Of a DNA stretch of 64,000 nucleotides, positions 30,258 to 47,572 are shown piece after piece. The position numbers were made by a program, and so were the translations under genes. Each line of letters begins with the position of its first letter. Position 1 is the first letter of the stretch. The notes beneath the pieces are model-generated. The model ran no database searches and was not told where the DNA came from. It saw only the letters and a program-made list of their open reading frames with translations. The stretch comes from an uncultured Actinomycetes bacterium (GTDB taxonomy: Bacteria; Actinomycetota; UBA4738; HRBIN12). The stretch lies in the NCBI GenBank assembly GCA_963790335.1, contig CAWBOB010000007.1, positions 161,069-225,068 on the forward strand, read 5' to 3'.

Positions 30258-30297
30258 AGCGGCAGCCTACCGGGAAGCCTCGCGGGCGCCGAGGCGC

Positions 30298-31511: not shown

Positions 31512-31571
31512 CGCCACGACCCTACCGAGTGGCCGGTCGTGCATGTCCAGCGACTGCGAAGGAGGTGCCAC

Positions 31572-32165: not shown

Positions 32166-32169
32166 CGCT

Positions 32170-32589
32170 TCAGGGAACGCCGGCGTGGCGAGGCGCGTCG
32201 ACGACCGGCTCGGGCGCATGCCACACGGCTTCGACGTTGTTCTGGTGCAGGTCGCTGACGAACGCCCCGTAGTAGCGCTCGGAGTACTGCGTCCACACCC
32301 CGGGCTCGCCGCGCGCGGTCGCGCCGTTCGCGACGGCGCCCTCGAAGAACGCATCCACGGCGTCCCGCCCCTCGGCGGAGAACGCGATGTGCGCCGCCGT
32401 GGTCACCGGCTCCCCGCGGCAGATGGCGAAGTCGTCGAGATCGTCGGGCCCGTAGGACACACAGTCCTCTTGCACGAAGAGTTCCTCATAGCCGAGCGGT
32501 GCGAGGGCGGCCGTGTAGAGCCTGCGGCTCGCGGTTACGTCTGCCACGACGAAGAGCACGTGATCGACGACGACGCGGCGAACCGTCAT
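32170..32589 (-). CDS. VOC (glyoxalase/bleomycin-resistance/dioxygenase) family protein
   Basis: 139 aa from ATG 32589 (MTVRRVVVDHVLFVVADV...HIAF). ATGA overlap with the upstream VOC. Confidence 0.8.
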   Translation of the reverse strand: MTVRRVVVDHVLFVVADVTASRRLYTAALAPLGYEELFVQEDCVSYGPDDLDDFAICRGEPVTTAAHIAFSAEGRDAVDAFFEGAVANGATARGEPGVWTQYSERYYGAFVSDLHQNNVEAVWHAPEPVVDAPRHAGVP

Positions 32590-33041
32590 GCGTTCACGCC
32601 GATCTGCTGGGCCAGCCCGATGAGGATGCCCTCGGGCCCCCGGACGTAGCAGAGCCGATACACGTCTTCGTACTGGACCACTTCGTCGACGAGCTGCGCG
32701 CCGTGGTCGCGGAGCCGGGCGAGCGTCTCGTCGAGGTCGTCCACGGCGAACATGACACGCAGGTAGCCCAGAGCGTTCACCGGGGCGTTGCGGTGATCGG
32801 CGACCACGGGCGGCGCGAGGAAGCGCGAGAGCTCGACCCGGCCGTGTCCGTCCGGCGTCCGCATCATGGCGACCTCGACGCGCTGGTCCCGCAATCCGGT
32901 GACGCGCCCCGACCAGTCTCCTTCGATCATGAAGCGGCCTTCGAGTTCGAGGCCCAGCGCGGTGAAGAACGCGATGGCGACTTCGAGCGATTCCACCACG
33001 ATGCCCACGTTGTCCATCCGCTGAACCGCCACGCGGTCCAT
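32586..33041 (-). CDS. VOC family protein
   Basis: 151 aa from ATG 33041 (MDRVAVQRMDNVGIVVESLEVAIAFF...). Confidence 0.8.
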   Translation of the reverse strand: MDRVAVQRMDNVGIVVESLEVAIAFFTALGLELEGRFMIEGDWSGRVTGLRDQRVEVAMMRTPDGHGRVELSRFLAPPVVADHRNAPVNALGYLRVMFAVDDLDETLARLRDHGAQLVDEVVQYEDVYRLCYVRGPEGILIGLAQQIGVNA

Positions 33042-33090
33042 CCTTGCAGGTTCGCAAGGTCGACCAGGTGTGCGTGAGACGCTCGAAGCC

Positions 33091-34284
33091 TCACGACCAC
33101 CTGGCATGCAGGGACGTCGGGCCCCGGTACTCCCACCCGCGGAACACGACCTCGGCGCTCGGGTCCAGGTGCAGCCAGGGGAGGCGCTCGGCGAGCAGGC
33201 GCAGACCGATGCGCATCTGCAATCGCGCGAGCTGATGTCCCACGCAGAAGTGCGGCCCGAAGCCGAACGCGGCGTTCGCGTGACGCGCCCGGAAGAGATC
33301 GTAGGCATCGGCGGTCGGGCCCCACGCTTCCTCGTCTCGGTTCGCCGAGGGGATGATGAGCCCGACGGCCTCGCCCTCGGGGATCTCGATCCCCGCGACC
33401 GAGACGTCCGGGCCGGCCGCCCGCCCCTGCGTGCCGATCGGTGAGACCCATCTGATGCCCTCGTCGACGGCCCGCCGCGCGAGGCCAGCGGGATCGTCGA
33501 GGAACGCCGCGCGCTGCTCCTCGATGCCGAGGATGCCCGCGATCGTCGAACCGAGGCCGTCGGCAGGCTCCTGCAAGCCGCCGATGAGCGCGAGCTTCAG
33601 GGTGGGCATGAAGGCACGCATGCGGTCGTCGAGGTCGCCCGCCTCGGCGTGGAGCATGTCGCAGATCATCGAGCCGTCGGGCCGTTCGAGCAGCTCGGCC
33701 AGTCGTGGCCGGAGCGTCTCGTCGATCTCGGTGCTCGTGCGATCGGCCACCGCCTGCTTCGCGGGGTCGCTCTCGTAGTTCGAGGTTCCGGTCGCGAGAT
33801 CGTGGAACCAACGCTGCAGCGTGGGCGCATCGAGCTCACGCAGGCCGATCACCTCGGCGAGCGAGACCGCCGCGAGCGGTCGGCAGTAGGCGGACGTCAG
33901 ATCGGCCTCGCCGTCGGCGGCGAACCCGTCGATCAACGTGGTCGCGATGCGCTCCACGATCGAGGGGGCTGCGGCCTCGATCGCTCGGGGCCTGAGGGTG
34001 GCTTCCATCGGCGCTCGCCAGTGCTCGTGGTCCTCACCGTCGACCGTGAGCACGTTGCGCCCGCCGAGGGTCCGATCGAGCGGCGATGCGGCCATCGAGG
34101 CAGGGAACGCAGCACCGTCCTCGGCGGCGGCCACGACGTCGGCCCACCTCGTCACGAACCAGAGACCCACGGCCGGCACGAAACAGACGGGCGAGTTCCG
34201 GCGCAGCCGCGCGTAGATCGGATACGGGTCCTCGTCGAGCGCCGAGACGGTGATGTCGTCGGCACGAGCCTCGGTCAGGGCCAC
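33091..34284 (-). CDS. Cytochrome P450
   Basis: 397 aa. FGFGPHFCVGHQLARLQ heme loop, EGIRW. Confidence 0.9.
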   Translation of the reverse strand: MALTEARADDITVSALDEDPYPIYARLRRNSPVCFVPAVGLWFVTRWADVVAAAEDGAAFPASMAASPLDRTLGGRNVLTVDGEDHEHWRAPMEATLRPRAIEAAAPSIVERIATTLIDGFAADGEADLTSAYCRPLAAVSLAEVIGLRELDAPTLQRWFHDLATGTSNYESDPAKQAVADRTSTEIDETLRPRLAELLERPDGSMICDMLHAEAGDLDDRMRAFMPTLKLALIGGLQEPADGLGSTIAGILGIEEQRAAFLDDPAGLARRAVDEGIRWVSPIGTQGRAAGPDVSVAGIEIPEGEAVGLIIPSANRDEEAWGPTADAYDLFRARHANAAFGFGPHFCVGHQLARLQMRIGLRLLAERLPWLHLDPSAEVVFRGWEYRGPTSLHARWS

Positions 34285-34299
34285 CTGACGCTCCCCCGT

Positions 34300-35637
34300 C
34301 TACGCGATCGCCGCGATCGAATCCTCGAAAGCCTCGAGCGTGCGATCGACGTCCTCGTCGGTGTGCTGGGCCGACATCGAGAACTCCTCGAACCACGCCG
34401 AGCCCATGGGGATCACGCCGCGGTTCAGCATCGCGAACCAGTAGTCGTCCCAGCGAGCGGCGTCGTTGCGTGCAGCTTCCCGGAAGTTCATGGGCTGCCG
34501 GTCGAGACCGAAGAACAATCCGCCGAGCGTGTTGAGCTGCACGACGTGCGCGGTGATGCCCTTGTCGGCGACCACCTCGCGCATGCCGTCGGCCAGGCGC
34601 GTGGTGAGGCGGGTCATCTCCTTGTAGGCGTCGTCGGTCATGACCTTGGTGAGGCATGCGAGCCCGGCCGCCATGCCGAGCGGGTTCGCGTTGTAGGTGC
34701 CGAAGTGCACCGCCGGGCCGAGCGGGCTGATCTGCTCCATCAGCTCGCGCTTGCCGCCGAACGCGCCGACCGGCACGCCGCCGCCGATCGCCTTGGCGAG
34801 CGTGACGAGGTCGCCCTTCACCCCCCAGAGCTCGGTGGCGCCACCCGGCGCGATGCGGCAGCCGAGCTTGACCTCGTCCATGATCATCACCGCGCCCTTC
34901 TCGGTGCAGAGCGCGCGCACGCCCTCGAGGTAGCCGGGCTCGGGCGGGATCACGCCGCCGTTGGTCATGGCCGGCTCGACGATCACGCCGGCCACGTCGC
35001 CGTCGTGCTCGTCGAACGCGCGGCGCATCATGTCGAGGTCGTTGAACGACACGACCGCCGTGAACTCGGTCGATGCCGGCAGCAACCCGGCCGAGTCGGC
35101 GGTGGCGTTCGGGTGCTCGTCGGGGCCGGCGGCGTCGGCGTCGGCGCCGCCGATCGAGACGAGCAGGTGATCGGTGCCGCCGTGGTACTGGCCTTCGATC
35201 TTCACGATCGTCTTGCGTCCGGTGGCGGCACGCGCGAGCCGGATCGCGGTCTGCGTGGCCTCGACGCCCGACTGGGTGAACCGGATCATCTCGATCACGC
35301 CTGGGTAGCGGCGGATCACTTCCTCGGCGAGGTCGCCCGCGAGCGTCGTCGGCAGGCCGTAGAGCGTGCCGTGCTCGGCCTGGCGCGTGATGGCCTCGAC
35401 GATGATCGGGTTGGCATGACCGGCGACCATGGCCGCGTAGCAGAGCGAGTAGTCGATGTACTCGTTGCCGTCGAGATCCCACACCCTCGACCCCTTGGAA
35501 TCCGCGAGGTACAGCGGATGCGGCGGCTTGAACTGGATGGCGCTGCCGACCCCACCCGGGATCACCTTCGCGGCGCGCTGCCACGCTTCCCTGCCCTTGG
35601 GGGTCCGTCGCTCGTACTCCTCGACGCCGTCGGTCAT
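34300..35637 (-). CDS. Class III aminotransferase (glutamate-1-semialdehyde aminomutase-like)
   Basis: ATG 35637 (MTDGVEEYERRTPKGREAWQRAAKVIPGGV...). DEVKLG PLP-lysine region. ATGA overlap with the CoxL stop. Confidence 0.85.
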   Translation of the reverse strand: MTDGVEEYERRTPKGREAWQRAAKVIPGGVGSAIQFKPPHPLYLADSKGSRVWDLDGNEYIDYSLCYAAMVAGHANPIIVEAITRQAEHGTLYGLPTTLAGDLAEEVIRRYPGVIEMIRFTQSGVEATQTAIRLARAATGRKTIVKIEGQYHGGTDHLLVSIGGADADAAGPDEHPNATADSAGLLPASTEFTAVVSFNDLDMMRRAFDEHDGDVAGVIVEPAMTNGGVIPPEPGYLEGVRALCTEKGAVMIMDEVKLGCRIAPGGATELWGVKGDLVTLAKAIGGGVPVGAFGGKRELMEQISPLGPAVHFGTYNANPLGMAAGLACLTKVMTDDAYKEMTRLTTRLADGMREVVADKGITAHVVQLNTLGGLFFGLDRQPMNFREAARNDAARWDDYWFAMLNRGVIPMGSAWFEEFSMSAQHTDEDVDRTLEAFEDSIAAIA

Positions 35638-37994
35638 GGCTCCGCTCCTTCCTGCTCCTGTGCGTCTGCCGGCCTCTCGGCGGCAGCCGACGCTGCCTCT
35701 GCCTCCGCGATACACGAAAGCACGCGTTCGGGTGTGATGGGAAGGGTCCTCGGCCGCACCCCGATCGCGTCGGCGATCGCCGCTGGGATCGCTCCGAGCG
35801 GCGGACCGATCGGAGGTTCGCCGATGCCCCTCGCGCCGAAGGGTCCGAGACCCTCGCCCGACTCGAGGATCACGGTCTCGATGTCGGGCACGTCGGTCGC
35901 CGTGGGGATCAGGTACTGGAAGAGTCCCGGCGTGAGGTTCACGCCGTCCTGCATCGCGACCTCCTCGAGCAGGACCTGCCCGATGCCCTGCACGGCGGCG
36001 CCCGAGATCTGCCCCTCGACGCTCAGCGGGTTGATGGCGCGGCCCACGTCGTGGGCGGCGACGTAGCGCACCAACCGGACCTCCCCCGTATCGACGTCGA
36101 CCTCGACGTCGGCCAGGTGCGTGCCGAACGTGAAGTCGGGGAAGATCCGCCCGCCCTCCAGGTCGCGGGTCACCTCGTGCCCCTTGGGTCCGAAGTGCGT
36201 GCCGAGCGCCTCGATCGGCACGTTGCGCCGACGACAGAGCTGCAGCACGTCGACGAGCGCGGTGGTGGCGTCGGCACCCACGATGCCGTCGGGCGTGATG
36301 CGGAGCGAGCCGACGGGCTGTGCGGTCTCGTCGGCAACCGCGCCGAGCAGGCGATCACGGAGCATCGTCGCCGCCTCGTAGGTGGCGTTGCCCGACATGA
36401 GCAGCTGGCGCGTCGCCGTCGTCGTTCCGGCCAGGGGCGTGAGCGCGCTGTCGCCGAAGTGCACGCTGATGCGGTCGATGTCGACGGCGAGGATCTCCGA
36501 GGCGATCTGACCGAGCGACGAAGCTTGGCCGCCGCCGATGTCGGGCACGCCGCACCGCACGGTGAGCGAGCCGTCCATCTGGAAGCCGATCCAGGCCGCC
36601 GCGGAATCGTTGAGCCACACCAGCCGGCCGTAGGACTGCATGTTGCAGGCGATCGCCCGCCCGATCCGCTTCCGAGGACCGCTGGGTGCAGGCTTGTCCC
36701 CGGCGCGCTCACGCACGGCGTCGATCGTCTGCGGCAGCTGCACCTCGGTGATCAGCTCCTGCCCGACCGGCAACCGATCGCCGCGGACCAGCGCGTTCCG
36801 CTTGCGGATCTCGCCCGGATCGACGGCGAGGCGTCTCGCGAGCTCGTCGATCTGGGATTCGTACCCGAGCACCATCTGCATGCCCCCGAAGCCTCGGAAC
36901 GCCGACGTCGGCGGGTTGTTCGTGTACGCCGTGCGCGCCCGGATGCGCACGTCGGCCACCCGGTACGGGCCACACGCGTGCACGGTCGAGTAGAGGAGCA
37001 CGAGAGCCGACAGGTACGCGTACGCTCCGGCGTCGGAGACGATGTCGATGTCGTGCGCCGTGAGCGTGCCGTCGGACGAGGCCGCGGTGCGATAGCGCAT
37101 CACGTTGCGGTGGCGCTTCGCGCGAGCCAGCAGCGACTCGTTGCGGGTCCACTGCATGCGGACGGGCCGCCCGGTGTGCCAGACACCGAGCGCGATGTAC
37201 GGCTCGACCGTCATGTCTTCCTTGCCGCCGAACCCGCCACCGACGTACGGAGCGATGACCCGCACCTTGGAGTCGGCGACCCCCAGGATCTTCGCGACGT
37301 CGCGATAGTGCTCGACCACCTGGGTCGCGACCCGCAGGGTCAGCACGCCGTCGTCGTCGAGCCACCCCACGCCCGCCTCAGGCTCCAGGTAGGCGTGATC
37401 GACGAACTGGGTGCGGTACTCGCCCTCCACGACGACATCGGCCCGATCGAAGGCGGCCTCGACGTCGCCCCGGTCGATCCGCCATTCCGCCAGCAGGTTG
37501 CCACCCTCGTGCACCTCGACCGCGTCGTCGGCGAGCGCGTGCTCTGGGTCGCTCACGACCGGCAGCTCATCGAGCTCGATCTCCACGAGCTCGCGCGCGA
37601 TGGCGAGCGCGTCCTCGGTCTCGGCGATCACCAAGGCGACCGGCTCCCCGTGGAAGCGGACCCGGTCCGTCGCGAGCACCTGCATCGTTGCCTTCAGGGC
37701 TCCCACGGCGACCGTCTGACCCGGCACGTCGACCCGGATCTCGTTGTTGGGCACGTCTTCGCCGAACAGCACCGCCACGACGCCGGGCACGGCCCTCGCC
37801 GCGTCGGCGTCGCGGCGAGTGATCGTCGCGCTCGGTGCCTGCGACCTCACGAGGCACGCGTGCAGCATGCCGCTGAAGGCGAGGTCGCCCGCGTACCTCG
37901 TGGTGCCTGCGATCTTCTCGGCCTGATCGTGGCGGGCCAGCGGCTGGTGCACCACGCGGAGCTCATCGAGCTTCGACGTGCGCACCTCGCTCAC
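35634..37994 (-). CDS. Molybdopterin-binding large subunit of a xanthine dehydrogenase/CoxL-family hydroxylase
   Basis: ~786 aa from GTG 37994 (GTGA overlap with the CoxS stop). GGGFGGKE motif, typical length. Confidence 0.9.
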   Translation of the reverse strand: MSEVRTSKLDELRVVHQPLARHDQAEKIAGTTRYAGDLAFSGMLHACLVRSQAPSATITRRDADAARAVPGVVAVLFGEDVPNNEIRVDVPGQTVAVGALKATMQVLATDRVRFHGEPVALVIAETEDALAIARELVEIELDELPVVSDPEHALADDAVEVHEGGNLLAEWRIDRGDVEAAFDRADVVVEGEYRTQFVDHAYLEPEAGVGWLDDDGVLTLRVATQVVEHYRDVAKILGVADSKVRVIAPYVGGGFGGKEDMTVEPYIALGVWHTGRPVRMQWTRNESLLARAKRHRNVMRYRTAASSDGTLTAHDIDIVSDAGAYAYLSALVLLYSTVHACGPYRVADVRIRARTAYTNNPPTSAFRGFGGMQMVLGYESQIDELARRLAVDPGEIRKRNALVRGDRLPVGQELITEVQLPQTIDAVRERAGDKPAPSGPRKRIGRAIACNMQSYGRLVWLNDSAAAWIGFQMDGSLTVRCGVPDIGGGQASSLGQIASEILAVDIDRISVHFGDSALTPLAGTTTATRQLLMSGNATYEAATMLRDRLLGAVADETAQPVGSLRITPDGIVGADATTALVDVLQLCRRRNVPIEALGTHFGPKGHEVTRDLEGGRIFPDFTFGTHLADVEVDVDTGEVRLVRYVAAHDVGRAINPLSVEGQISGAAVQGIGQVLLEEVAMQDGVNLTPGLFQYLIPTATDVPDIETVILESGEGLGPFGARGIGEPPIGPPLGAIPAAIADAIGVRPRTLPITPERVLSCIAEAEAASAAAERPADAQEQEGAEP

Positions 37995-38476
37995 GGTCGC
38001 GACCCCTGCGCTGCCTCGATCGCGTCGACGATCGGACCGTAGCCGGTGCATCGACAGAGGTTGCCGTGCAAGGCGTCCCTGATCTCGTCACGGTCGAGCG
38101 CGCGATCGGCGTGGGCGAGCAGCGAGGTGGCGCACATAAGCATGCCCGGGGTGCAGAACCCGCACTGGGCCGCGTGACGCTCGTGGAAGGCCCGCTGCAA
38201 GGGGCCGAGCGAACCGTCGGGCTCGCACAGGCCGGCCGCGGTCGTGATCACCGCGCCGTCGAGCTGGGCCGCGAGCACGATGCACGACGAGACCGGCTCG
38301 CCGTCGACCAGCACCGTGCAGCTGCCGCACACGCCTTCACCGCAGCCGTACTTGGGATCGGTGACGCCGGCGGCGTCGCGGAGCCATCGCAGCAGGGAGA
38401 GGTGAGCGCCCGCCGTCCTGGTCACGGTCGTGCCGTTCACGTCGAGGGAGGTCGTCAGGTCGTGGCGCTCGGTCAT
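37991..38476 (-). CDS. [2Fe-2S]-binding small subunit (CoxS-like)
   Basis: 161 aa. CGEGVCGSCTV and CGFCTPG...CRCTGY cluster motifs. Confidence 0.9.
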   Translation of the reverse strand: MTERHDLTTSLDVNGTTVTRTAGAHLSLLRWLRDAAGVTDPKYGCGEGVCGSCTVLVDGEPVSSCIVLAAQLDGAVITTAAGLCEPDGSLGPLQRAFHERHAAQCGFCTPGMLMCATSLLAHADRALDRDEIRDALHGNLCRCTGYGPIVDAIEAAQGSRP

Positions 38477-39333
38477 GCGGCTCGTCCTCGTGCTGCGGCA
38501 TCGGCGAGGGCGCGCACGGCGAGCACCCGGGCGAGGTGGGCTCGGTGCTCGGCACTCGCGCTGGTGTCGGTGACCGCCTGGAGCCCCTCGACTGGACCGA
38601 TGCGGTCGTCGAGCTCGCTCGGCTCGGCGCCGCTCGTCGCGGCCTCGATCTCGCCGATGCGGATCGGTCGCTCGTGCACCCCGCCGAGCGCGAGCCGCGC
38701 CTCGACGATGCGTCCGTCGGCGACCCGGGCGAGGGCGGCGGCGGCGGCGATCGCGAAGTCGCCCTTGCGCCGCGAGATCTCGGCGAAACCCCATCCCCAC
38801 CCGGGGCCCAAGGCGGGCACGCGCACCGAGGCGATCAGCTCGTCGTCGGCGAGCGCACTCGTGAAGTACGAGACGTGGAACTCGTCGGCCCGCACCACGC
38901 GCGTGCCGGCGCCGGTCGTGAGCTCGTACTCGGCGCCGAGCGCCGTCATCACGAGTGGAAGCTCGGCCGCCGGGTCGGAGTGCGCGAGCGAGCCGCCGAG
39001 CGTTCCCCTCGTGCGGATGCGGGCGGAACCGATCCACGAGGCCGCGGCCGGCACGAGAGGCTGGTGCGCGAGCAGGGTCTCGTCGCGCTCGAGGTCTCGA
39101 TGACGCGTGAGTGCGCCGATCGTGATGAACCCGTCGTCGAGCCGCACGCCTCGCGCCTCGCGCACGCGGCCGAGGTCGATGACCGAGTCGAGATCCAGCA
39201 ACCCGAGGTTCGCCAGCGGCAGCAGGCTCTGCCCACCCGCGATGACCTTCGCCGCGCCCCGCGCCTCGCGCAGCATGTCGCACGCCGCGCCGAGCGAGTC
39301 CGCCCGCTCGTACCGGAACGGCTTCACGAGCAC
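38473..39333 (-). CDS. FAD-binding medium subunit (CoxM-like)
   Basis: 286 aa. KVIAGGQSLLP and TLGGSLAH motifs. Confidence 0.9.
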   Translation of the reverse strand: MLVKPFRYERADSLGAACDMLREARGAAKVIAGGQSLLPLANLGLLDLDSVIDLGRVREARGVRLDDGFITIGALTRHRDLERDETLLAHQPLVPAAASWIGSARIRTRGTLGGSLAHSDPAAELPLVMTALGAEYELTTGAGTRVVRADEFHVSYFTSALADDELIASVRVPALGPGWGWGFAEISRRKGDFAIAAAAALARVADGRIVEARLALGGVHERPIRIGEIEAATSGAEPSELDDRIGPVEGLQAVTDTSASAEHRAHLARVLAVRALADAAARGRAA

Positions 39334-39346
39334 GGAGCGCTCCCGC

Positions 39347-40640
39347 TCATCGTGCCGGTGCGGTCTCGGCCCCGTCGACGGTCGCCGGGGCGCGCTGGAG
39401 GTCGTCGAGCGCGCCCGACAGGCCGTTGACGAGCTCGTCGACCTCGTCGTCGGCGAGCACCAACGGCGGCGAGACGTGGATCGCTCCCGTCGCGAGCGTG
39501 CGGGTCATCACCCCGTTGGCCCGGCACGCGGGTACGACACCCGCGAGCAGTCCGGGGTCCGCCGCCAGCCGCGCGGGGTCGAGCTGCACGGCCGCGAGCA
39601 CGCCCGTTCCCGCACGGATCTCACTCACGAGGTCGTGGCTCGCCAGCGCGCCGAGGCCCTCGGCGAGCGCGCCCTCGAGCTCGACAGCGCGCGCGAGCAG
39701 GTGCTCGCGCTCGATGATCTCGAGGTTCGCGATCGCGGCCGCGGCGACTGCGGCGTGACCCGAGTACGTGTAGCCGTGGCGCCACATGCCGGCACCCTCG
39801 GCGTAGAAGGGCTCCCAGACGACGGGCGCTGCGATGACCGCCCCGAGGGGCAGGTACCCGCTCGTGATGCCTTTCGCACACGTCACGATGTCGGGCTCCA
39901 GGTGCCAGCGGGTGCTCGCGAACCAGTCTCCGGTCCGGCCGAATCCGGTGATCACCTCGTCGGCGATGAACAGCACGCCCGCGTCGCGGCACGCCCGCCG
40001 GACCGAGTCGAGGTAGCCGCTCGGAGGCGCGAACACACCGCCCGCCCCGATGACCGGCTCGCAGAAGAACGCCGCAGCGGTGCCGTCGAGCCGCTCGATG
40101 GTCTCGCTCAGCGCGTCGGCGTCGTCCCAGGCGAACCTCCGCCACGTCGGCGAGCAGGGTGCCGTGCCCTTCGGCGTTCGCGGGCAGGCCACCGAGCGAT
40201 GTTCCGGCCGCGTGCATGCCGTGATAGGCGCGCTCGCGACGGATGAAGACACGCCGCTCCGGTTGCCCGCGCAGATGCCAGTACCGGCGGACCATCTTGG
40301 TCGCCGTGTCGATCGAGTCCGAGCCGCCGCTCGTCAGGAACACCTTCGACCCCGCCACCGGGGCGAGGCTCGCCACGCGCTCGACGAGCTCGGCCACCGC
40401 CGGGTTGGTGAGGTCCTGGAAGGTCGAGAACGCCTCGAGCTCACGCATCTGCTTCGCGACCGCCTCGGCGATCTCGGTGCGTCCGTGCCCCACGTTGCAG
40501 TACCACAGGCTCGCCGTCGCATCGAGGTAGCGCCGTCCGCCTGCGTCCCAGACATGGGAGCCCTCGCCCCGCACGATGGAGAGCTCGCCCGCGGCCTCCA
40601 CTGCCCCCATGTCGGCGAACGGGTGCCAGTACGAGCTCAT
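39347..40640 (-). pseudogene. Class III (omega-type) aminotransferase, frameshifted as sequenced
   Basis: N-terminus is in ORF 39621..40640 (MSSYWHPFADMG...LWYCNVGHGR...SGGSDS). C-terminus is in ORF 39347..40252 (AAFFCEPVIGAGG...IADEVITGFGRTG...TCAKGITSGY). The switch is at ~40130-40135. Removing one base gives AEVRWDDADAL. Confidence 0.8.
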
Positions 40641-41596
40641 CGGTGCTCACCTTCGGGCCGTGCCGGCGTGAGATCGGGCAACGACGGCGCGATCGCCGGC
40701 GTCCACCCCGGCTCGAGGCCGAGCACACGCTCCGGGTTGCGCTTCGTCATCTTCTCGAGGTACTCGAACGGAACGCCGACGCCGAGCAGGGCCGCGAGCA
40801 GCATGCGCAGACCTTCGGGGTGGGGCGGTCCCGCGAACTGGCCGAGGTCGGAACCGAGCACGAGATGCTCGCCTTCGAGCTCGACGATCCACTCCGCGAG
40901 CTCGCCGGGCTGCTGCTCCCAGAAGATCGGGGACACGCACGAGCAGGCGACGTACTCGATCGTCGCGCCGTCGGCGATCAGCTCCTTCTGCACCGACACG
41001 TCGAGCTTGCAGAGCGACCAGTTCGCGTGGGTCACGATGAATCGGGTCACCCCCGCCTCGTTCGCCGCGGCCTGCAACGCGCGGATCTCGGGCAGCGACA
41101 GATGACCGGTGGCGAGCGCCACGTCGTTCGCTGCCACGACCTCGCAGATCGTGCGCGCTTCCTTCGTCAGTGTCGAGCCGTCGTCTTCGAAGACGGTGAC
41201 ACCCTCGCCGGGCAGCTGCGGCTTGGGGCGGCCGAACTGTGGGTAGTCGGGCATGTCGAAGTACTCGGCGTGGTACTTGGAGTGGTTCGATGGCATCCAC
41301 ACGACCCGAGCTCCATAGTGGATCGCCGACTCCGCCACATAGGGGTTCAGCCCGCCCACCGAGCGGTTCAGCACGACGGCGCCGAACGACTCGACCTCGG
41401 GGAACATGCGGTTCACGTAGTAGGCGCGCCCCGTGGTCGAGGCGTCGTGATCCTTGAGCACGAAGCCGCGCATGCCGTACCGGATCGCGAACTCGGCGAG
41501 CGCCGCGTCGTCGATGTGACGCTGGAAGAGCGCCGGCCCGGTGTGCGCGTGCATGTCGATCGCTCCGCGCAGGAGCTCGAGATCGGGTCGGTCCAT
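40637..41596 (-). CDS. Amidohydrolase-fold (TIM-barrel metal-dependent hydrolase) protein of unassigned specificity
   Basis: 319 aa. N-terminal IDMHAHTGP (HxH). ATGA overlap with the aminotransferase start. Confidence 0.7.
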   Translation of the reverse strand: MDRPDLELLRGAIDMHAHTGPALFQRHIDDAALAEFAIRYGMRGFVLKDHDASTTGRAYYVNRMFPEVESFGAVVLNRSVGGLNPYVAESAIHYGARVVWMPSNHSKYHAEYFDMPDYPQFGRPKPQLPGEGVTVFEDDGSTLTKEARTICEVVAANDVALATGHLSLPEIRALQAAANEAGVTRFIVTHANWSLCKLDVSVQKELIADGATIEYVACSCVSPIFWEQQPGELAEWIVELEGEHLVLGSDLGQFAGPPHPEGLRMLLAALLGVGVPFEYLEKMTKRNPERVLGLEPGWTPAIAPSLPDLTPARPEGEHR

Positions 41597-41610
41597 CGCG
41601 ACTTCCTGTT

Positions 41611-41629
41611 CTTCTCGCTGAATGAGAAG
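41611..41629. promoter_or_regulatory. Dyad CTTCTC-N7-GAGAAG in the divergent promoter region (candidate IclR operator)
   Basis: Read from the sequence. The nearby imperfect dyad ATTTCGA-N10-TCGGAAT lies in the same 124-bp, less GC-rich gap (41597-41720). Confidence 0.3.
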
Positions 41630-41720
41630 CTATTTCGACTGCCGAGATTCGGAATGGTACCATCCCCGGGACGGCGGCACACCGACGCCGCCGACCCACC
41701 CCGCGAGGAGCCGTTCGCCG

Positions 41721-43148
41721 ATGCCGACCGCCCCACCCGTCACGCCACTGGTGGTCGCGGGCGACGACGTCGCCGACGGCGAGCGGGTGGAGGTCCGCTC
41801 CCCGTGGGACGGCCGCCTCGTCGGGTCGGTCCCGTGGCTCGGCCCCGACGCAGCCCGAGCCTCGATCGACGCGGCCTGGCGCGCGATGCAGACGGGCCTC
41901 GCCGCCTGGGAGCGGGCGGAGATCCTCGACCGCGTGGCCGCCGAGGTCCGGGAACGACGCGAGCAGTACGGACGCATGATCTCCGATGAGAACGGCAAAC
42001 CGTACACGCTGGCCCTCGCCGAGGCCGACCGCTGCGTGCAGACGCTGATCTTCTCCGCGGCCGAGGCACGTACCCTCGCCGGCCGCGGCGTGCCGCTCGA
42101 CGCGCACCCCGCAGGGGCCGGTCACCTGGGGTTCACGGTGCGCGTCCCCGTCGGCGTGGTGGCGGCGATCACACCGTTCAACTTCCCGCTCACCCTCGCC
42201 GCGCACAAGATCGGGCCCGCCGTCGCCGCGGGATGCGGGGTGGTGTTGAAGCCCGCCGACAAGGCGCCGCTCGCCGCGATCGAGCTGGTGCGCGCGTTCC
42301 ATCGAGCCGGACTTCCTCCGGCCTGGATGTCGGTCGTGGTCGGCGACCCTGCTCCGATCGCCGATGCGTTGATCGCCGACGACCGCGTCGGCTTGCTGAC
42401 CTTCACCGGGTCGGCGGCGCTGGGCTGGCAGCTCAAGGCGAAAGCGGCGCGCAAGCGGGTGACCCTGGAGCTCGGCAACTCGACACCGGTGATCGTCTGC
42501 GCCGACGCCGACGTCGACATCGCGGCGACGATGTCGGCCGCGAGTGCCTACGCGTTCGCCGGACAGTCGTGCATCAGCGTGCAGCGGGCGATCGTGCACC
42601 GTGACGTGCACGGCGCGTTCGTCGATCGGCTCGCGGAGGCTGCCGAGGCCCAGCGGGCCGGCGACCCGTCGGACCCCAAGACCGATCTCGGGCCCGCGAT
42701 CACCCGGCAGGCCCGCGACCGCGTGGTGGCCTCGGTCGAGGCCTCGGTGGAAGCAGGGGCTCGTCGGCTGACCGGTGGCACCTTCGGCGACGGCCACCTC
42801 CGGCCCGTGGTGCTCGACTCGGTCGCCACCGACCAGGCCGTCTGGAAGCACGAGATCTTCGGGCCCGTCGTCGCCGTCACCGCGTTCGACGCGCTCGACG
42901 AGGCGATCGAACTCGCGAACGGCACCGAGTACGGCCTGCAGGCGGGCATCTTCACCCGCGACCTGCCGAGCGCACTGGCGGCCATCGGCGAGCTCCGATT
43001 CGGAAGCGTGACGATCAATCAGGCGCCGCAGTTCCGGGTCGATCAGATGCCCTATGGGGGCACCAAGGCGTCGGGTAACACCAAGGAAGGACCGCACGAC
43101 GCGGTCCGCGAGATGACCGAGGAGCGGATGGTCGTCGTTCGCCTGTAG
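41721..43148 (+). CDS. NAD(P)-dependent aldehyde dehydrogenase
   Basis: ATG 41721 follows SD gaggag. TPFNFPL, LELGNSTP and FAGQSCISVQR (catalytic Cys). 475 aa. Confidence 0.9.
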   Translation: MPTAPPVTPLVVAGDDVADGERVEVRSPWDGRLVGSVPWLGPDAARASIDAAWRAMQTGLAAWERAEILDRVAAEVRERREQYGRMISDENGKPYTLALAEADRCVQTLIFSAAEARTLAGRGVPLDAHPAGAGHLGFTVRVPVGVVAAITPFNFPLTLAAHKIGPAVAAGCGVVLKPADKAPLAAIELVRAFHRAGLPPAWMSVVVGDPAPIADALIADDRVGLLTFTGSAALGWQLKAKAARKRVTLELGNSTPVIVCADADVDIAATMSAASAYAFAGQSCISVQRAIVHRDVHGAFVDRLAEAAEAQRAGDPSDPKTDLGPAITRQARDRVVASVEASVEAGARRLTGGTFGDGHLRPVVLDSVATDQAVWKHEIFGPVVAVTAFDALDEAIELANGTEYGLQAGIFTRDLPSALAAIGELRFGSVTINQAPQFRVDQMPYGGTKASGNTKEGPHDAVREMTEERMVVVRL

Positions 43149-43163
43149 GGCGAGGACCGCGCG

Positions 43164-44033
43164 ATGGTGTCCACGGCGAAGACAGCCACGGAGCGCACGG
43201 GCTCGGTTCCGGTCGCGGAGGCGGCACCGTTCCGGGTGCTCGACCGCACGTTCTCGATCCTGGAGCTGTTCGATGAGGATCACACCGACTGGAACGCCTC
43301 GGAGGTCGCCCGGGCGGTCGGGCTGCCGGTGCCGACCGCCCACCGCATCCTCACCGCGCTGAAGCACCGGGGCTACGTGAGCCAGGACGACACGTCCAAG
43401 CGCTTCAGGCTCGGCGTGTCGTCGATGCGGCTCGGTGATCGCGCGCGCTCGGTCGTCGACCTGCGGAGCGTCGCGCTGCCCGTGCTGCAGCGCCTCGCCG
43501 AGCACGCCGGCGAGACGGCCCTGCTCACCGTCGTCTCACCCGATCGCGCCACTGGGTCATGCCTCGAGCGCGTGGAGTCCTCACAGCCGCTGCGCCTGTC
43601 GGTGTCACCGGGGCGGCAGCTCCCCCTGCACGCCGGGGCATCGCAGAAAGCCTTGCTCGCGTTCATGAGCGAGCGCGAGATCGAGGTGAACCTCGGCGCG
43701 AAGCTCGACCGGCTCTGCGAGGCGACGATCACCGATCCGGTCGCGATGCGCGCAGAGCTCGCGCGCATCAGACGCCGAGGCTGGGCGGGCAGCTTCGAGG
43801 AGACCAACGTGGGGGTATGGGGCGTGGCGGTCCCGGTGCTCGGCGACGAGGACGTGATCTGCGCCGTCGGAGTCGCGGGGCCGAGCGCGCGTCTGTCGGC
43901 GACGAACGTGCGCACCGACATCGAGCTGGTCCACGCCGCGGCTCTCGAGATCGCAGCGCCGCTCGGCCTGCGGGTGCCGCCGCTCCGAGACACGCGGGCA
44001 CGCATCGATAGCAGGAGGCGAGGGAGATCATGA
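43164..44033 (+). CDS. IclR family transcriptional regulator
   Basis: 289 aa. N-terminal wHTH (LDRTFSILELF...EVARAVGLPVPTAHRILTAL) plus an IclR effector domain. Confidence 0.9.
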   Translation: MVSTAKTATERTGSVPVAEAAPFRVLDRTFSILELFDEDHTDWNASEVARAVGLPVPTAHRILTALKHRGYVSQDDTSKRFRLGVSSMRLGDRARSVVDLRSVALPVLQRLAEHAGETALLTVVSPDRATGSCLERVESSQPLRLSVSPGRQLPLHAGASQKALLAFMSEREIEVNLGAKLDRLCEATITDPVAMRAELARIRRRGWAGSFEETNVGVWGVAVPVLGDEDVICAVGVAGPSARLSATNVRTDIELVHAAALEIAAPLGLRVPPLRDTRARIDSRRRGRS

Positions 44034-44829
44034 ACGGAACCGAGCGACCACTGCGAGGCAAGGTGGCGATCGTCACGGGCGCGGCCAAGGGGATCGGCGG
44101 CGTCGTCACCGAGCACCTCGCCCGCGACGGCGCCCACGTGGTGCTCGTGGGTCGCACGGCGGCCGCGCTCGATGAGCACGCGCGAGGCGTGGACCAGCGC
44201 TACCCCGACCGCCAGAGCCTGGTGGTCACCTGCGATGTCACCGACGAGGCCGACGTAGAGTCCATGGTCGTGGCGGTGACCGGGCGCTTCGGCGGCATCG
44301 ACATCCTCGTGAACACCGCCGGGGGTACCGGTCCCATCGAGACTCCGGCGCAGTCGTATCCGGCCGAGGAGCTCCGCGCCATCTTGGACCTGAACGTCGT
44401 GGGGACCTTCCTCCCTGTAAGCACGTGATCCCGCACATGATCGCTGGAGGCGGTGGACGCATCGTGAACATCGCGGGCACCTCGGGCCTGCGCGGATACC
44501 GCAACCGCAGCGGCTATTCCGCCTCGAAGTGGGCCGTCCGCGGCCTGACCCGTACCCTCGCGCTCGAGCTCGGCCCGCACGACATCACCGTCAACGATGT
44601 CTGCCCGAACGTCACGCACGGAGCCCGCATGGACACGATCGTCGCCACGAAGGCCGCAGCGCTCGGCACCACCCCCGAGCAGGTCTATGCCGACTTCGCC
44701 TCTCAGACCGCGCTCGGCCGGTTCGTCGACGAGGAGGACATCGCCTGCTCGATCGACTTCCTGGTCTCGGAGGGAGCGCGCAATATCACCGGCCACGACA
44801 TCGTGGTCGACGCCGGCTGGGACGTGTGA
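44030..44829 (+). pseudogene. SDR family oxidoreductase, frameshifted as sequenced
   Basis: ORF 44030..44428 (KVAIVTGAAKGIGG...NTAG) plus ORF 44425..44829 (YSASKWAVRGLT...GHDIVVDAG). The junction is at 44411-44416. Adding one C gives GTFLPCKHVIPHM. Confidence 0.8.
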
Positions 44830-45836
44830 CCGGACCGGCGGCGGGCGCGAGCTCAGGTCGCATCTGGACGGGCCTCGGCGCCGTCTACGTCATCTGGAGC
44901 ACGACGTTCATCGCGATCAAGCTCGTCAACGAGACGATGCCACCGCTCGTCGCGACCGGGGTGCGCTTCTTCGTCGCCGGCGCCGTGCTGCTCCCCATCG
45001 CGCTGCGGGCCGGGGACCGCCGGGGCGACCGCCCCGGCGCCGCCGAGTGGAAGGGTGCGGCGGTCGTCGCGGTGCTGCTGATGTTCGGTGGCAACGGGGG
45101 CATCGTCTGGGCCGAGCGCACGATCCCGTCGGGGGTCGCAGGGCTCGCGATCGCCACCGTGCCGTTGTGGATCGCGGCGATCGACCGCGTGGTGCTGCAC
45201 CGGCGTCAGCCGGGCATCGTCGTCGTGGGGCTCTGCGTCGGGTTCGTCGGCGCGGCGCTGCTCGTCGGCGGTTCGGCGTTCGATGGCGCGATCGACCTCG
45301 GCGGACTGCTGGTGGCGCTCGCCGCCGCCGCGTCATGGGCGGCGGGATCGATCTACCAACGGCACGCGCGCCTTCCCCGACGCCCCTTCGTCGCCGCCGG
45401 CATGGAGATGGTGGTCGCCGCCGGCGTGTTCTGGGTCGCAGGGGCGCTCGCCGGAGAGCTGTCGGATCTGCGGCTCGACGGCTTCTCGCGCGCGTCCGTG
45501 CTCGGTCTCGCCTACCTGGTCGTGATCGGCTCGTGGATCGGGTTCACCGCCTACCTGTGGCTGCTGCGGGTGGCGCGCACGTCGCTGGTCGCGACCTACG
45601 CCTACGTCACACCCGTCGGCGCCGTGCTGCTCGGCTGGCTCCTGCTCGACGAGCGGCTCACGACGACGGCGATCGCGGCCGGCGCGCTCATCGTGGTGTC
45701 GGTGGTGCTGATCGTGTCGAGCGGTGGAACGACCGCCCGCGATGACGGCGCCTCAACGGACGACCGATCCCCGCGCGAGGAGGACTCAGGCGGCGAGCAG
45801 GGGCGGACGCATGTCGAGCCGGAGATCGTGCTCTAG
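44826..45836 (+). CDS. DMT superfamily (EamA-like) transporter
   Basis: GTG 44826 overlaps the SDR stop (GTGA). About 10 TM segments, two EamA-like halves. The 3' end overlaps the gatA 3' end by 51 nt. Confidence 0.8.
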   Translation: MTGPAAGASSGRIWTGLGAVYVIWSTTFIAIKLVNETMPPLVATGVRFFVAGAVLLPIALRAGDRRGDRPGAAEWKGAAVVAVLLMFGGNGGIVWAERTIPSGVAGLAIATVPLWIAAIDRVVLHRRQPGIVVVGLCVGFVGAALLVGGSAFDGAIDLGGLLVALAAAASWAAGSIYQRHARLPRRPFVAAGMEMVVAAGVFWVAGALAGELSDLRLDGFSRASVLGLAYLVVIGSWIGFTAYLWLLRVARTSLVATYAYVTPVGAVLLGWLLLDERLTTTAIAAGALIVVSVVLIVSSGGTTARDDGASTDDRSPREEDSGGEQGRTHVEPEIVL

Positions 45837-47252
45837 CGCCGCTCCGGTGCGGAACAGGGTTGGCTCGTCGAGCGCCTTCGCGGTGAGCTGCACGCCGATC
45901 GGCAGGCCGGCCGAGTCGAGGCCGCACGGCACGCTCATCGCCGGCACGCCGCCGAGGTTCGCGGGGATGGTGAAGATGTCGTTCAGATACATCGCCATCG
46001 GGTCGTCGGCCTTCGACCCGATCGGGAACGCCGTGGTCGGCGAGGTCGGCGACACGAGCACGTCGAATCGCTCGAACGCGGCCGCGTAGTCCTGCAGGAT
46101 CAGCGTTCGCACCTTCTGCGCCTGTCCGTAGTACGCCTCGTAGTACCCCGCCGAGAGCGCGTAGGTGCCGAGCATGATGCGCCGCTTCACCTCGGCGCCG
46201 AACCCCGCCCCGCGCGTGCGGAACATCATCTCGATCGAGTCGTCGCCGTCGACCCGAAGCCCGTACCGCACCCCGTCGTAGCGAGCGAGGTTCGAGGAAG
46301 CCTCGCTCGGCGCGATCAGGTAGTAGGCGCTGAGCGCGTACTCCGCATGCGGAAGCGTCGCTTCCCCCACGTCGGCGCCGAGCGCGTCGAGGCGGTCGCA
46401 AGCTGCGCGCACCGAGGCCACGACATCGGGCTGGACCCCCTCGCCGAACGCCTCGGCCAGCACGCCGACCCGGAGCCCTTCGACACCCATGCCGATGCCG
46501 TCCGCGTAGTCGGGCACCTCGGCATCGATGCTCGTGGCGTCGCGGTGGTCCGGGCCTGCCATCACGCCGAGCAGGGTCGCGGCGTCGGCCACGGTGCGCG
46601 TGAAGGTGCCGATCGTGTCGAGCGACGACGCGAACGCGATCAGCCCGTACCGGCTGATCCGGCCGTAGGTGGGTTTGAGCCCCACCGTGCCGGTCAGTGA
46701 GGCGGGCTGGCGGACCGAGCCGCCGGTGTCGGTACCGAGCGCCCAGACCGCCATGCCGCTCGCGACCGCAGCCGCGCTGCCGCCGCTCGAGCCACCGGGC
46801 ACGGTGTCGAGATCCCACGGGTTGTGCACGGCCCCGAACGCCGAGTTCTCGTTCGATGAGCCCATCGCGAACTCGTCGCAGTTCGTCTTGCCGACGAGCA
46901 CGCTTCCCGCCCCCGACAGCCTCGTCCACGACGTCGCGTCGTACGGCGGTACGTACGTTTCGAGGATGCGCGAGCCGCAGGTGGTGCGGATGCCGTTGGT
47001 CGTGAGCACGTCCTTCAACGCGAGCGGGATGCCGGCGACCCCCGACTGCGGGGCCCCGGTCGCGAGATAGATGTCCAGCTCCGCGGCGCGTTCCAGCGCG
47101 ACCTGCGGCGTCGGCGTGAGGAAGGCTCCCACCCGTTCGTCGAGCGCCTCACGACGCGCGATCGACGACTCCGCGAGCGACACGGCGCTGATCTCGCCGG
47201 CGCGCAACTTCGCGGAGAGCTCCACCGCCGGCAGATCGCAGAGCTCGGTCAC
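45786..47252 (-). CDS. gatA: Glu-tRNA(Gln) amidotransferase subunit A
   Basis: 488 aa. Amidase signature GGSSGGSAAAVA. Confidence 0.95.
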   Translation of the reverse strand: MTELCDLPAVELSAKLRAGEISAVSLAESSIARREALDERVGAFLTPTPQVALERAAELDIYLATGAPQSGVAGIPLALKDVLTTNGIRTTCGSRILETYVPPYDATSWTRLSGAGSVLVGKTNCDEFAMGSSNENSAFGAVHNPWDLDTVPGGSSGGSAAAVASGMAVWALGTDTGGSVRQPASLTGTVGLKPTYGRISRYGLIAFASSLDTIGTFTRTVADAATLLGVMAGPDHRDATSIDAEVPDYADGIGMGVEGLRVGVLAEAFGEGVQPDVVASVRAACDRLDALGADVGEATLPHAEYALSAYYLIAPSEASSNLARYDGVRYGLRVDGDDSIEMMFRTRGAGFGAEVKRRIMLGTYALSAGYYEAYYGQAQKVRTLILQDYAAAFERFDVLVSPTSPTTAFPIGSKADDPMAMYLNDIFTIPANLGGVPAMSVPCGLDSAGLPIGVQLTAKALDEPTLFRTGAALEHDLRLDMRPPLLAA

Positions 47253-47542
47253 GAGCCGGTCTCGGCGATCTTCGGCACCAGGAACCGCCCGTCGCGCTCC
47301 GCCGGGGCGTTCGCGAGCGCCGCGTCGTGGCTCACGCTCGGCTCCGCCGTGTCCTCACGGAAGACGTTCACCTGCGGGATCGGGGAGGCGGTCGGCACCA
47401 CGTCGTCGGCGGCGACCTCGCCCACCTTCGCCGCGTGCTCCAGGATCACCGCGAGCTGGCCGCGCATGCGCAACTTCTCGTCCTCGGAGAGCTCCACCCG
47501 CGCGAGCTTCGCCACGTGGTCGATGTCGATCTCCACCGGCAT
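47249..47542 (-). CDS. gatC: Glu-tRNA(Gln) amidotransferase subunit C
   Basis: 97 aa. IDHVAKLARVELSEDE... 4-nt overlap with gatA. Confidence 0.9.
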   Translation of the reverse strand: MPVEIDIDHVAKLARVELSEDEKLRMRGQLAVILEHAAKVGEVAADDVVPTASPIPQVNVFREDTAEPSVSHDAALANAPAERDGRFLVPKIAETGS

Positions 47543-47572
47543 GGGCGCAGTGTAGCGGCGTGGTGCAGCGCC

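Follow-up and report, generated by a model that had tools for sequence, protein, structure and literature searches.

The stretch of DNA analyzed here, referred to below as the window (64,000 nt of contig CAWBOB010000007.1 from an uncultured Actinomycetes bacterium; G+C about 70%), carries a divergent gene cluster with an IclR-family regulator, in which the genes of a three-subunit molybdenum (Mo) hydroxylase accompany a gene for a protein of the Pfam family DUF6282 (cf. Table 1). The open reading frames (ORFs) of the window were scanned with Pfam and NCBIfam profiles, and equivalog cutoffs were used for family membership. The ORFs and domain classes proposed in a first-pass annotation, which was made from the nucleotide letters, were recovered in place, except that the genes of the first class-III aminotransferase (AT1) and of the classical SDR oxidoreductase turned out not to be intact. 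All five 4-nt start-stop overlaps listed there were also present (four ATGA and one GTGA): the S subunit gene overlaps its neighbours by GTGA and ATGA, and the start of the second aminotransferase gene (AT2) overlaps the stop of the L subunit gene by ATGA. Two further overlaps of this size were observed, namely ATGA between IclR and SDR and GTGA between SDR and EamA; with these overlaps, the genes are coupled in translation.

Table 1. Features of the cluster and its immediate surroundings (window positions).
Feature	Position	Strand	Basis or remark
Cytochrome P450, CYP255-like	33091-34284	-	Pfam p450; last gene of the conserved minus-strand operon
AT2, glutamate-1-semialdehyde (GSA)-aminomutase-like class-III aminotransferase	34300-35637	-	Pfam Aminotran_3, 211 bits
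Mo hydroxylase, L subunit (molybdenum cofactor)	35634-37994	-	Pfam Ald_Xan_dh_C + MoCoBD_1 + MoCoBD_2
Mo hydroxylase, S subunit, [2Fe-2S]	37991-38476	-	Pfam Fer2 + Fer2_2
Mo hydroxylase, M subunit, FAD-binding	38473-39333	-	Pfam FAD_binding_5 + CO_deh_flav_C
AT1, putative pyruvate-type omega-transaminase, frame-interrupted	39347-40640	-	Aminotran_3 over two frames
DUF6282 protein, predicted amidohydrolase-superfamily barrel	40637-41596	-	Pfam DUF6282, 207 bits; first operon gene
Divergent control region	41597-41720	none	Two conserved palindromes
Aldehyde dehydrogenase (ALDH)	41721-43148	+	Pfam Aldedh, 445 bits
IclR-family regulator	43164-44033	+	Pfam HTH_IclR + IclR_C
Classical SDR oxidoreductase, frame-interrupted	44030-44829	+	adh_short over two frames
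EamA/DMT transporter	44826-45836	+	Pfam EamA
Two VOC/glyoxalase-fold genes, outside the conserved cluster	32170-33041	-	No orthologues in related loci

Conserved gene set, control region and frame interruptions

Gene counts come from two comparisons of related loci (numbered L001 and onwards), one being a tblastn matrix and the other an all-against-all analysis of families. The genome scan was limited to species-representative genomes and returned 80 DUF6282 loci, essentially all from uncultured organisms and mostly from Actinomycetota, the more distant ones belonging to Chloroflexota, sponge-associated Acidimicrobiia, and two archaeal metagenome-assembled genomes (MAGs). Genes were counted within 8 kb of DUF6282 in the 47 species genomes with enough flanking sequence, and a set of 33 species-level genomes ("close genomes") had a DUF6282 protein at least 70% identical to that of the window. 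The L and M genes of the hydroxylase were found near DUF6282 in 41 of the 47 genomes, often within tens of bases, and L, M, SDR, and IclR were present in 31-32 of the 33 close genomes (32 each for IclR and SDR). Orthologues of the ALDH (at least 55% identity) occurred in 18 of the 33 close genomes, and those of the P450 (at least 50% identity) in 10 of the 47. The full set of eight genes (L, M, SDR, IclR, AT1, AT2, ALDH, and P450) was present in seven genomes, and all of them but P450 in 11. The invariant core is DUF6282 with the M/S/L hydroxylase, the SDR, and IclR, and the possibility raised in the first-pass annotation, that these genes might not be conserved together in other genomes, was thereby removed.

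The related loci fell into two types. In type A, to which the window belongs, the order is DUF6282-AT1-(alanine dehydrogenase)-M-S-L-AT2-(P450 and/or second ALDH) on one side and ALDH-IclR-SDR-(PotABCD-like transporter) on the other, genes in brackets being variable. In L012-L017 and L054, the genes of AT1 and the M subunit are separated by that of alanine dehydrogenase (TIGR00518, 518 bits vs a cutoff of 392), the PotABCD-like transporter genes flank the cluster in relatives (PotA TIGR01187, 381 vs 356), and relatives also carry a CN-hydrolase and a second ALDH resembling betaine aldehyde and aminobutyraldehyde dehydrogenases, the latter being absent from the window. Type B keeps DUF6282-M-S-L, IclR, and the SDR and adds a different class-III aminotransferase with a 4-oxalocrotonate-type tautomerase (4-OT), an NCS1 permease, a CN-hydrolase, and a flavoprotein of 728 aa, which scored 943 bits against histamine dehydrogenase of Nocardioides simplex (3k30) and 498 against trimethylamine dehydrogenase. 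The gene of this flavoprotein is often translationally coupled to L (with a 4-nt overlap in L002 and L004), and AT2 of type A and the amine dehydrogenase of type B share one slot, after the L subunit. Some type B loci have in addition a second hydroxylase set, an Asp/Glu-racemase/Amdase-like gene, and a CoA-transferase. None of 88 loci had a nonribosomal peptide synthetase, polyketide synthase, cyclodipeptide or tailoring context, and a biosynthetic cluster was rejected.

The whole island of 15.5 kb is flanked by two of the gatCAB amidotransferase genes, gatA and gatB, which lie on the same strand as each other (gatB at 28806-30257 and gatA with gatC at 45786-47560, both on the minus strand). 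The island is likewise placed between gatA and gatB in L009 and L010, and in more distant relatives the cluster is located elsewhere. The EamA/DMT transporter is restricted to the closest relatives, being found only in L001 and L008-L010 among 87 loci. As a separate observation, synonymous divergence (dS) from L001 was 0.21-0.32 from the M subunit to the SDR, about half of that in flanking EamA, GatA, and LigA (0.52-0.69; window 38543-45396), while comparisons with L008 and L009 gave no such contrast between cluster and flanks; the low values against L001 hint that the cluster was recently recombined or passed on among related lineages.

The two VOC genes, counted as cluster members in the first-pass annotation, do not belong to it. 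They lie on a 2.8-kb segment (30273-33097) between gatB and the P450, together with genes for a peptidase S51, an AAA-kinase-like protein, and a YecM-like protein, and in L009 and L010, which are devoid of this segment, the P450 is followed directly by gatB, for which reason we regard the segment as an extra insertion in the window. Neither VOC gene had an orthologue in any of the 87 related loci in the tblastn matrix, and no NCBIfam model matched their products; the one at 32170-32589 scored 20.4 bits, just under the Pfam gathering threshold of 20.6. As they are not conserved, the VOC genes were rejected as members of the pathway.

The 124-bp divergent gap with dyads, pointed out in the earlier annotation, was confirmed, and two dyads are kept in an alignment of 19 genomes. 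The first one, CTTCTC-N7-GAGAAG (41611-41629; conserved as TTCTC-N7-GAGAA), is located just upstream of the ribosome-binding site of DUF6282, and at the same site L012, L014, and L016 have a symmetric, compensatory variant, ATTTCAC-N3-GTGAAAT. The second one reads GGAATGGTACCATCC in the window (41651-41665), with a conserved form like CGGATGGTAGCATCCG, and it appears to overlap a -10-like hexamer (TAnnnT), preceded in most relatives by a -35-like hexamer (TTGACC). A scan of the divergent region for consensus sigma-70 promoters found nothing. Both palindromes are candidate IclR operators.

The gene of AT1, previously listed at 40640-39347, has a length of 1294 nt, not divisible by 3, and is spread over two frames matching the Aminotran_3 profile at positions 11-139 and 180-403 (81 and 177 bits, in this order). 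In the alignment, the frame break is a 1-nt insertion at about 40132 that is private to the window and not present in L001, L008, L009, or L010. Similarly, the SDR gene consists of two frames (44030-44428 and 44425-44829; adh_short positions 1-115 and 120-186), the break being due to the loss of 1 nt at about 44412, a private deletion that these four relatives do not share. If both frameshifts were genuine inactivating mutations, the copy of the cluster in this genome would be a decaying, nonfunctional remnant, which would agree with the presence of uncompensated single-base indels in two genes that four relatives keep intact and with neither indel being within a long homopolymer. Nevertheless, a one-base repair restored full-length ORFs of 430 aa for AT1 and 266 aa for the SDR with no internal stops, and in comparison with three relatives these had ratios of nonsynonymous to synonymous divergence (dN/dS) of 0.085-0.124 and 0.089-0.129, respectively, indistinguishable from those of neighbouring genes. 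Because the repaired genes are under normal purifying selection, the frameshifts are probably assembly errors, and we consider a remnant unlikely. A third frame break of the same kind, near 1150 in an SDR gene unrelated to the cluster (about 1100-1380, plus strand), the proper C terminus of which is in another frame so that ORF 86-2146 artificially fuses it with a second SDR, suggests a background of indel errors in the assembly. This explanation is also supported by the proteins of the window mapping to a 608-kb metagenome contig and by related long-read MAG loci having indels and split genes of their own (the L subunit in L009, at about window position 36367, and several genes in L003). Further frameshifts suspected at 54.4-56.6 kb were dismissed, as this region resolved into ordinary separate genes.

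Enzymes of the cluster

The hydroxylase had been labeled CoxLMS, which is misleading. Its L subunit has the domains and the motifs of the xanthine dehydrogenase (XDH) type (GGGFGGK, FRGFGG within AFRGFGG, and GIGEPP), its S subunit the two [2Fe-2S] domains, and its M subunit the FAD domain expected for the XDH/aldehyde-oxidase family, and no active-site loop of the CO dehydrogenase (CODH) type was seen in the L translation. Models of CODH were far under their cutoffs (TIGR02416, 222 bits vs 991; NF040766, 284 vs 950), and with the FRGFGG motif this led us to reject CO dehydrogenase. The best matches overall were PucD/XdhA, nicotinate dehydrogenase, and 4-hydroxybenzoyl-CoA reductase (4-HBCR). 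In a search of the PDB, the best summed match was nicotinate dehydrogenase of Eubacterium barkeri (285+182 bits for its split chains L and M), and the alpha subunit of 4-HBCR scored 301 bits. None of the NCBIfam equivalog cutoffs was reached, including those of the xanthine dehydrogenases PucD/XdhA, 4-HBCR, PaoC, and glyceraldehyde dehydrogenase, the highest score being that of PucD (499 vs 784). Judged by its motifs and closest relatives, the hydroxylase is a three-subunit molybdenum enzyme of the XDH family, of the xanthine/nicotinate-dehydrogenase type, and not a CO dehydrogenase.

The protein described at first as having an amidohydrolase fold matched by sequence only Pfam DUF6282: no NCBIfam model matched it, and a sequence search of the PDB returned nothing at E ≤ 1. 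The fold itself held on the predicted structure, as the AlphaFold2 model (pLDDT 81, pTM 0.84) was a (beta/alpha)8 barrel with the alternating pattern of strands and helices. In the PDB, Foldseek ranked members of the amidohydrolase superfamily highest, but only with template modeling scores of 0.5-0.6 and 12-16% identity; its matches included dihydroorotase, PTER (an N-acyl-amino-acid hydrolase), phosphotriesterase-like (PLL) lactonases, allantoinase, LigI, and ochratoxin amidohydrolase. Five residues, H16, H18, H165, H190, and D250, were invariant in 38 sequences and are placed where predicted strands (13-18, 160-164, 186-188, and 245-250) end. This arrangement fits the ligand pattern of the amidohydrolase superfamily, in which HxH follows strand 1, His follows strands 5 and 6, and Asp follows strand 8; for the bridging Lys or Glu after strand 4 of binuclear subtypes, the end of strand 96-102 of the model offered no obvious candidate. 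We therefore predict that DUF6282 is a metal-dependent barrel of the amidohydrolase superfamily. Its dN/dS of 0.03-0.06 was the lowest in the region, which means a stronger constraint than on the neighbouring housekeeping genes GatA, GatB, and LigA (0.08-0.13). The homologues of the protein number more than 1300, and the 120 best among them are 75-98% identical and come without exception from metagenomes or MAGs. At 57-64% identity (L080-L083 and L086 from sponge-associated Acidimicrobiia; L071, L074, and L076 from Chloroflexota), the same DUF6282/hydroxylase core is surrounded by a different accessory set, namely UbiD-type decarboxylases, CoxG, more hydroxylase sets, NMT1/THI5-like binding proteins, and extra amidohydrolases. 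Our literature search found no paper that mentions DUF6282.

Both aminotransferases are of class III and have Schiff-base lysine motifs (TCAKGITSG in AT1 and LAKAIGGG in AT2). The intact AT1 orthologue of L001 retrieved putrescine/polyamine:pyruvate and amine transaminases from the PDB (E 3e-91), which would place AT1 in the SpuC/amine:pyruvate class of omega-transaminases. AT2, whose relatives are 75-94% identical, was closest to GSA aminomutases in the PDB (E 5e-97) and passed the cutoff of the broader subfamily model NF000818 of NCBIfam (430 bits vs 398). A HemL function was rejected for AT2, since the hemL equivalog TIGR00713 was missed (422 vs 527) and the catabolic-operon setting argues against it, and its scores against GabT models were about 140-150 bits, with cutoffs above 700. 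The ALDH stayed under all NCBIfam equivalog cutoffs, including those of aminobutyraldehyde dehydrogenase (ABALDH) and succinate-semialdehyde dehydrogenase (SSADH), and the closest PDB matches of the SDR were of the 3-hydroxybutyrate dehydrogenase and acetoin reductase types.

The P450 translation has the heme motif FGFGPHFCVGHQLA, with the cysteine heme-ligand motif FGFGPHFCVG. Its closest solved structures (E 1e-65 to 1e-72) were 9ia1 and the guaiacol/syringol O-demethylases SyoA (8u09), which is classed as CYP255D, and GcoA (5ncb). No GcoB-type reductase gene adjoins the P450. A gene of the ferredoxin-reductase type (Pyr_redox_2 + Reductase_C; 25843-27057, minus strand) lies about 6 kb away and might act as a redox partner; a ferredoxin was not identified.

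Proposed pathway and competing explanations

These findings led us to propose that the cluster forms an island, under the control of IclR, for the catabolism of a nitrogen compound that bears an amine and the ring of which is hydroxylated and then opened by hydrolysis, a proposal towards which the balance of evidence tips slightly. While the domain assignments and the gene conservation come from the data, every chemical step is inferred. In this scheme, a primary amine would be converted into an aldehyde by the pyruvate-dependent AT1, with alanine dehydrogenase recycling pyruvate in relatives, or, in type B, by the histamine-dehydrogenase-like flavoprotein instead of AT1. The ALDH would then oxidize the aldehyde to an acid, and the Mo hydroxylase could add a water-derived oxygen at the carbon beside the ring nitrogen, giving a cyclic amide or ureide that DUF6282 would open hydrolytically. 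The amino-carbonyl product might pass to AT2 and the SDR, joined by the second ALDH and the CN-hydrolase in relatives, and the CYP255-like P450 may perform an accessory dealkylating or hydroxylating step. IclR would repress the divergent promoters via the two palindromes until an effector binds.

The first-pass annotation had recognized here the logic of N-heterocycle degradation. Its pairing of Mo hydroxylase and amidohydrolase gained weight, as DUF6282 lies next to the hydroxylase genes in nearly all genomes, its VOC part was dropped, and the emphasis moved from a nicotinate-like N-heteroaromatic compound to an amine-bearing one because of alanine dehydrogenase, the PotABCD-like transporter, the SpuC-class AT1, and the histamine-dehydrogenase-like enzyme of type B. 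The amine theme rests on independent, non-homologous parts, including also the second ALDH, and the entry enzyme converting amine to aldehyde would be supplied by two non-homologous solutions, either an omega-transaminase with alanine dehydrogenase or a histamine-dehydrogenase-like enzyme. The description of the locus as a coherent divergent cluster of catabolic type without a described counterpart was borne out, as we found no gene-for-gene published match; literature searches for polyamine with Mo and amidohydrolase, for cyclic imine, lactam, and molybdenum, and for histamine dehydrogenase with molybdenum returned no described matching cluster.

Among specific substrates, the leading candidate comes from the heterocyclic biogenic amines, for example histamine degraded via imidazole-4-acetate, which would match many parts of the cluster; the suggestion is tentative and, taken by itself, improbable. 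Cultured Mycolicibacterium goodii and Tsukamurella have a homologue, about 65% identical, of the type B histamine-dehydrogenase-like protein, in a cluster that also encodes a flavin monooxygenase, RidA, DUF1028, an M20 peptidase, and an aspartase-like lyase. In our reading, this gene set resembles the Hin histamine pathway of Pseudomonas. That cluster contains neither the hydroxylase nor DUF6282, which is compatible with the Mo/DUF6282 pair as a module that could be an alternative for ring opening. A bolder and quite doubtful version of this idea is that DUF6282 and the XDH-family hydroxylase form an oxygen-independent, hydroxylate-then-hydrolyze module, which would open the imidazole ring of histamine-derived imidazole-4-acetate and replace the flavin monooxygenase route in uncultured Actinomycetota, the resulting C4 amino-keto acid being isomerized by the GSA-aminomutase-like AT2 and oxidized to aspartate. 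We hypothesize that such an acid would suit a GSA-aminomutase-like enzyme and a 3-hydroxybutyrate-dehydrogenase-like SDR.

Several observations weigh against the proposed amine pathway: (i) no enzyme of the cluster passes an equivalog-level threshold, so that every substrate assignment is an inference; (ii) the data impose no order on the steps, and the transaminases could act after ring opening instead of before it; (iii) the histamine scheme could do without the P450 and the SDR; (iv) type B loci have no ALDH in the cluster; (v) the PotABCD-like and NCS1 transporters are weakly diagnostic; (vi) all close relatives are MAGs, hence no phenotype anchors the prediction; and (vii) DUF6282 proteins of 30-37% identity occur in cultured bacteria in contexts resembling aromatic meta-cleavage, which indicates that the family is not tied to nitrogen compounds. 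For instance, a 37%-identical DUF6282 protein is encoded among aromatic-type genes on pTHEOS01 of Thermus oshimai (L089; 17743-18663 of the record), with a GntR regulator and an extradiol dioxygenase on one side and a PIG-L-family gene, a CHA aldolase, and an oxidoreductase on the other.

Among other functions, the strongest is essentially the one favored in the first-pass annotation, in which an N-heteroaromatic carboxylate of the pyridine, pyrimidine, or indole type would itself be imported, hydroxylated by the Mo enzyme, and opened by DUF6282, with the transaminases (in type B, a transaminase and the amine dehydrogenase) and the ALDHs removing the released nitrogens. The adjacency of DUF6282 and hydroxylase in almost all genomes is in line with this view, as are the nicotinate dehydrogenase of E. 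barkeri being the closest solved L subunit by summed score, the UbiD-type decarboxylases, CoxG, and further amidohydrolases of the more distant loci, and, in type B, the NCS1 permeases of nucleobase type and the occasional second hydroxylase set, Asp/Glu-racemase/Amdase-like gene, and CoA-transferase. The common slot of AT2 and the amine dehydrogenase after L also fits both enzymes acting on a ring-opened amine. Still, with alanine dehydrogenase, the PotABCD-like importer, and the SpuC-class transaminase, it is rather an amine that would enter the pathway, type A loci share none of the reductases or oxygenases by which pyridines are known to be degraded, and DUF6282 has no sequence similarity at E ≤ 1 to any solved structure, which would include the enamidase structure in the PDB. 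We judge this explanation to be rather unlikely.

Catabolism of di- or polyamines is less probable and in our opinion doubtful. Here, putrescine, cadaverine, or spermidine would give an amino-aldehyde and then 1-pyrroline or 1-piperideine (as iminium), which the Mo hydroxylase would turn into a lactam and DUF6282 into an omega-amino acid, leaving AT2 and ALDH to form a dicarboxylate. The oxidation of iminium to lactam by Mo hydroxylases, as well as polyamine lactams, are known from mammals, and histamine dehydrogenases of the type B kind presumably also oxidize putrescine and agmatine. The PotABCD-like transporter, the SpuC-class AT1, alanine dehydrogenase, and the two aminotransferases and two ALDHs of the fullest clusters would suit such a substrate, and cyclic-amide hydrolases and lactonases are among the nearest folds of DUF6282. 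However, the canonical route would need only the ALDH at this point, which makes the pair of hydroxylase and hydrolase redundant, and AT2 is GSA-aminomutase-like rather than GabT-like. Moreover, the known bacterial enzymes that hydrolyze unactivated lactams with 5- or 6-membered rings (5-oxoprolinase, caprolactamase/OplBA) depend on ATP. This suggests that the action of a plain amidohydrolase on a lactam would be thermodynamically disfavored, and because of this requirement for ATP we downgraded the lactam scheme.

Finally, an amide conjugate (a phenolamide or acylated amine), split by DUF6282, with the amine degraded by AT1 and ALDH, the Mo enzyme acting as an aldehyde oxidoreductase, and the P450 O-demethylating a methoxy-aromatic part, would account for the similarity of the P450 to GcoA and SyoA, for PTER and ochratoxin amidohydrolase among the Foldseek matches, and for the polyamine-type transporter of relatives, but it is very unlikely, given that only about one close cluster in three has the P450 while DUF6282 and the hydroxylase are near-universal, that there is no conserved ring-cleavage dioxygenase (the VOC genes not being conserved), and that enzymes other than the aldehyde oxidoreductases PaoC and Mop are closest to the L subunit.

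In uncultured Actinomycetota, Chloroflexota, and Acidimicrobiia of the soil, of which there are dozens, DUF6282 almost always adjoins a Mo hydroxylase. This adjacency provides a well-defined target, and the activity of two or three expressed genes could give a function to the whole Pfam family and could reveal an oxygen-independent route for ring opening of biogenic amines or N-heterocycles in soil nitrogen turnover. If the imidazole-opening module is real, it would be the first function for DUF6282 and would define a second pathway of histamine in bacteria. Ligand screening with the IclR protein and its conserved candidate operators could lead to the inducer.

Comparison with known systems

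The cluster has no gene-for-gene match among the closest known systems, and the enzymes that define each of them are either missing or under curated thresholds. With the transaminase pathway of putrescine and polyamines (SpuC/PatA, KauB/PatD, GabT, and GabD), it has in common the SpuC-class AT1, ALDHs, and, in relatives, the PotABCD-like transporter. In contrast to that pathway, AT2 is not GabT-like, no GabT, aminobutyraldehyde dehydrogenase, or succinate-semialdehyde dehydrogenase was found at the equivalog level, and the Mo hydroxylase, DUF6282, the SDR, and the P450 have no role in the canonical route. A resemblance to LigI/LigJ of protocatechuate 4,5-cleavage comes from the DUF6282 protein of T. 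oshimai, which is encoded where a LigI or LigJ function would be expected, and from LigI being among the Foldseek matches; however, the DUF6282 subfamily of the window is at most 37% identical to such proteins, and its partners are a Mo hydroxylase and amine enzymes instead of meta-cleavage genes.

Histamine catabolism, represented by Hin of Pseudomonas and the histamine dehydrogenase of N. simplex, shares with the cluster an entry by an amine:pyruvate transaminase or a histamine-dehydrogenase-like enzyme, followed by an ALDH, and NCS1 permeases accompany both the type B and the M. goodii clusters. Unlike there, neither a flavin imidazoleacetate monooxygenase nor the downstream hydrolases and aspartase-like genes of M. 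goodii and Tsukamurella are present, and the Mo hydroxylase and DUF6282 stand in their place, their action on imidazole being only putative.

Another amine dehydrogenase of the histamine-dehydrogenase family is that of the nicotine pathway of Agrobacterium tumefaciens S33, which we take to be Pno. In this hybrid (VPP) pathway, a Mo hydroxylase, the amine dehydrogenase, and an ALDH are reported to be encoded in one catabolic cluster (PMC5500553). The loci studied here differ in having no 6-hydroxynicotine oxidase and no oxygenases of the HspB/Hpo type, and DUF6282 and class-III aminotransferases are not known to take part in the S33 pathway.

The nicotinate fermentation cluster of E. barkeri comprises NdhFSLM, 6-hydroxynicotinate reductase, enamidase, and 2-(hydroxymethyl)glutarate dehydrogenase. 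No 6-hydroxynicotinate reductase was found in the window, nor is any reductase-like gene conserved in type A loci, and no enamidase homologue was recognized, DUF6282 being without a PDB sequence match at E ≤ 1. The window cluster further differs in its two class-III aminotransferases, ALDH, P450, and IclR control, and in its aerobic-type actinomycetal host. Nonetheless, both systems combine an XDH-family Mo hydroxylase with a ring-opening enzyme, here putative, of the amidohydrolase superfamily and a small dehydrogenase, and NdhL with NdhM is the best summed PDB match of the L subunit.

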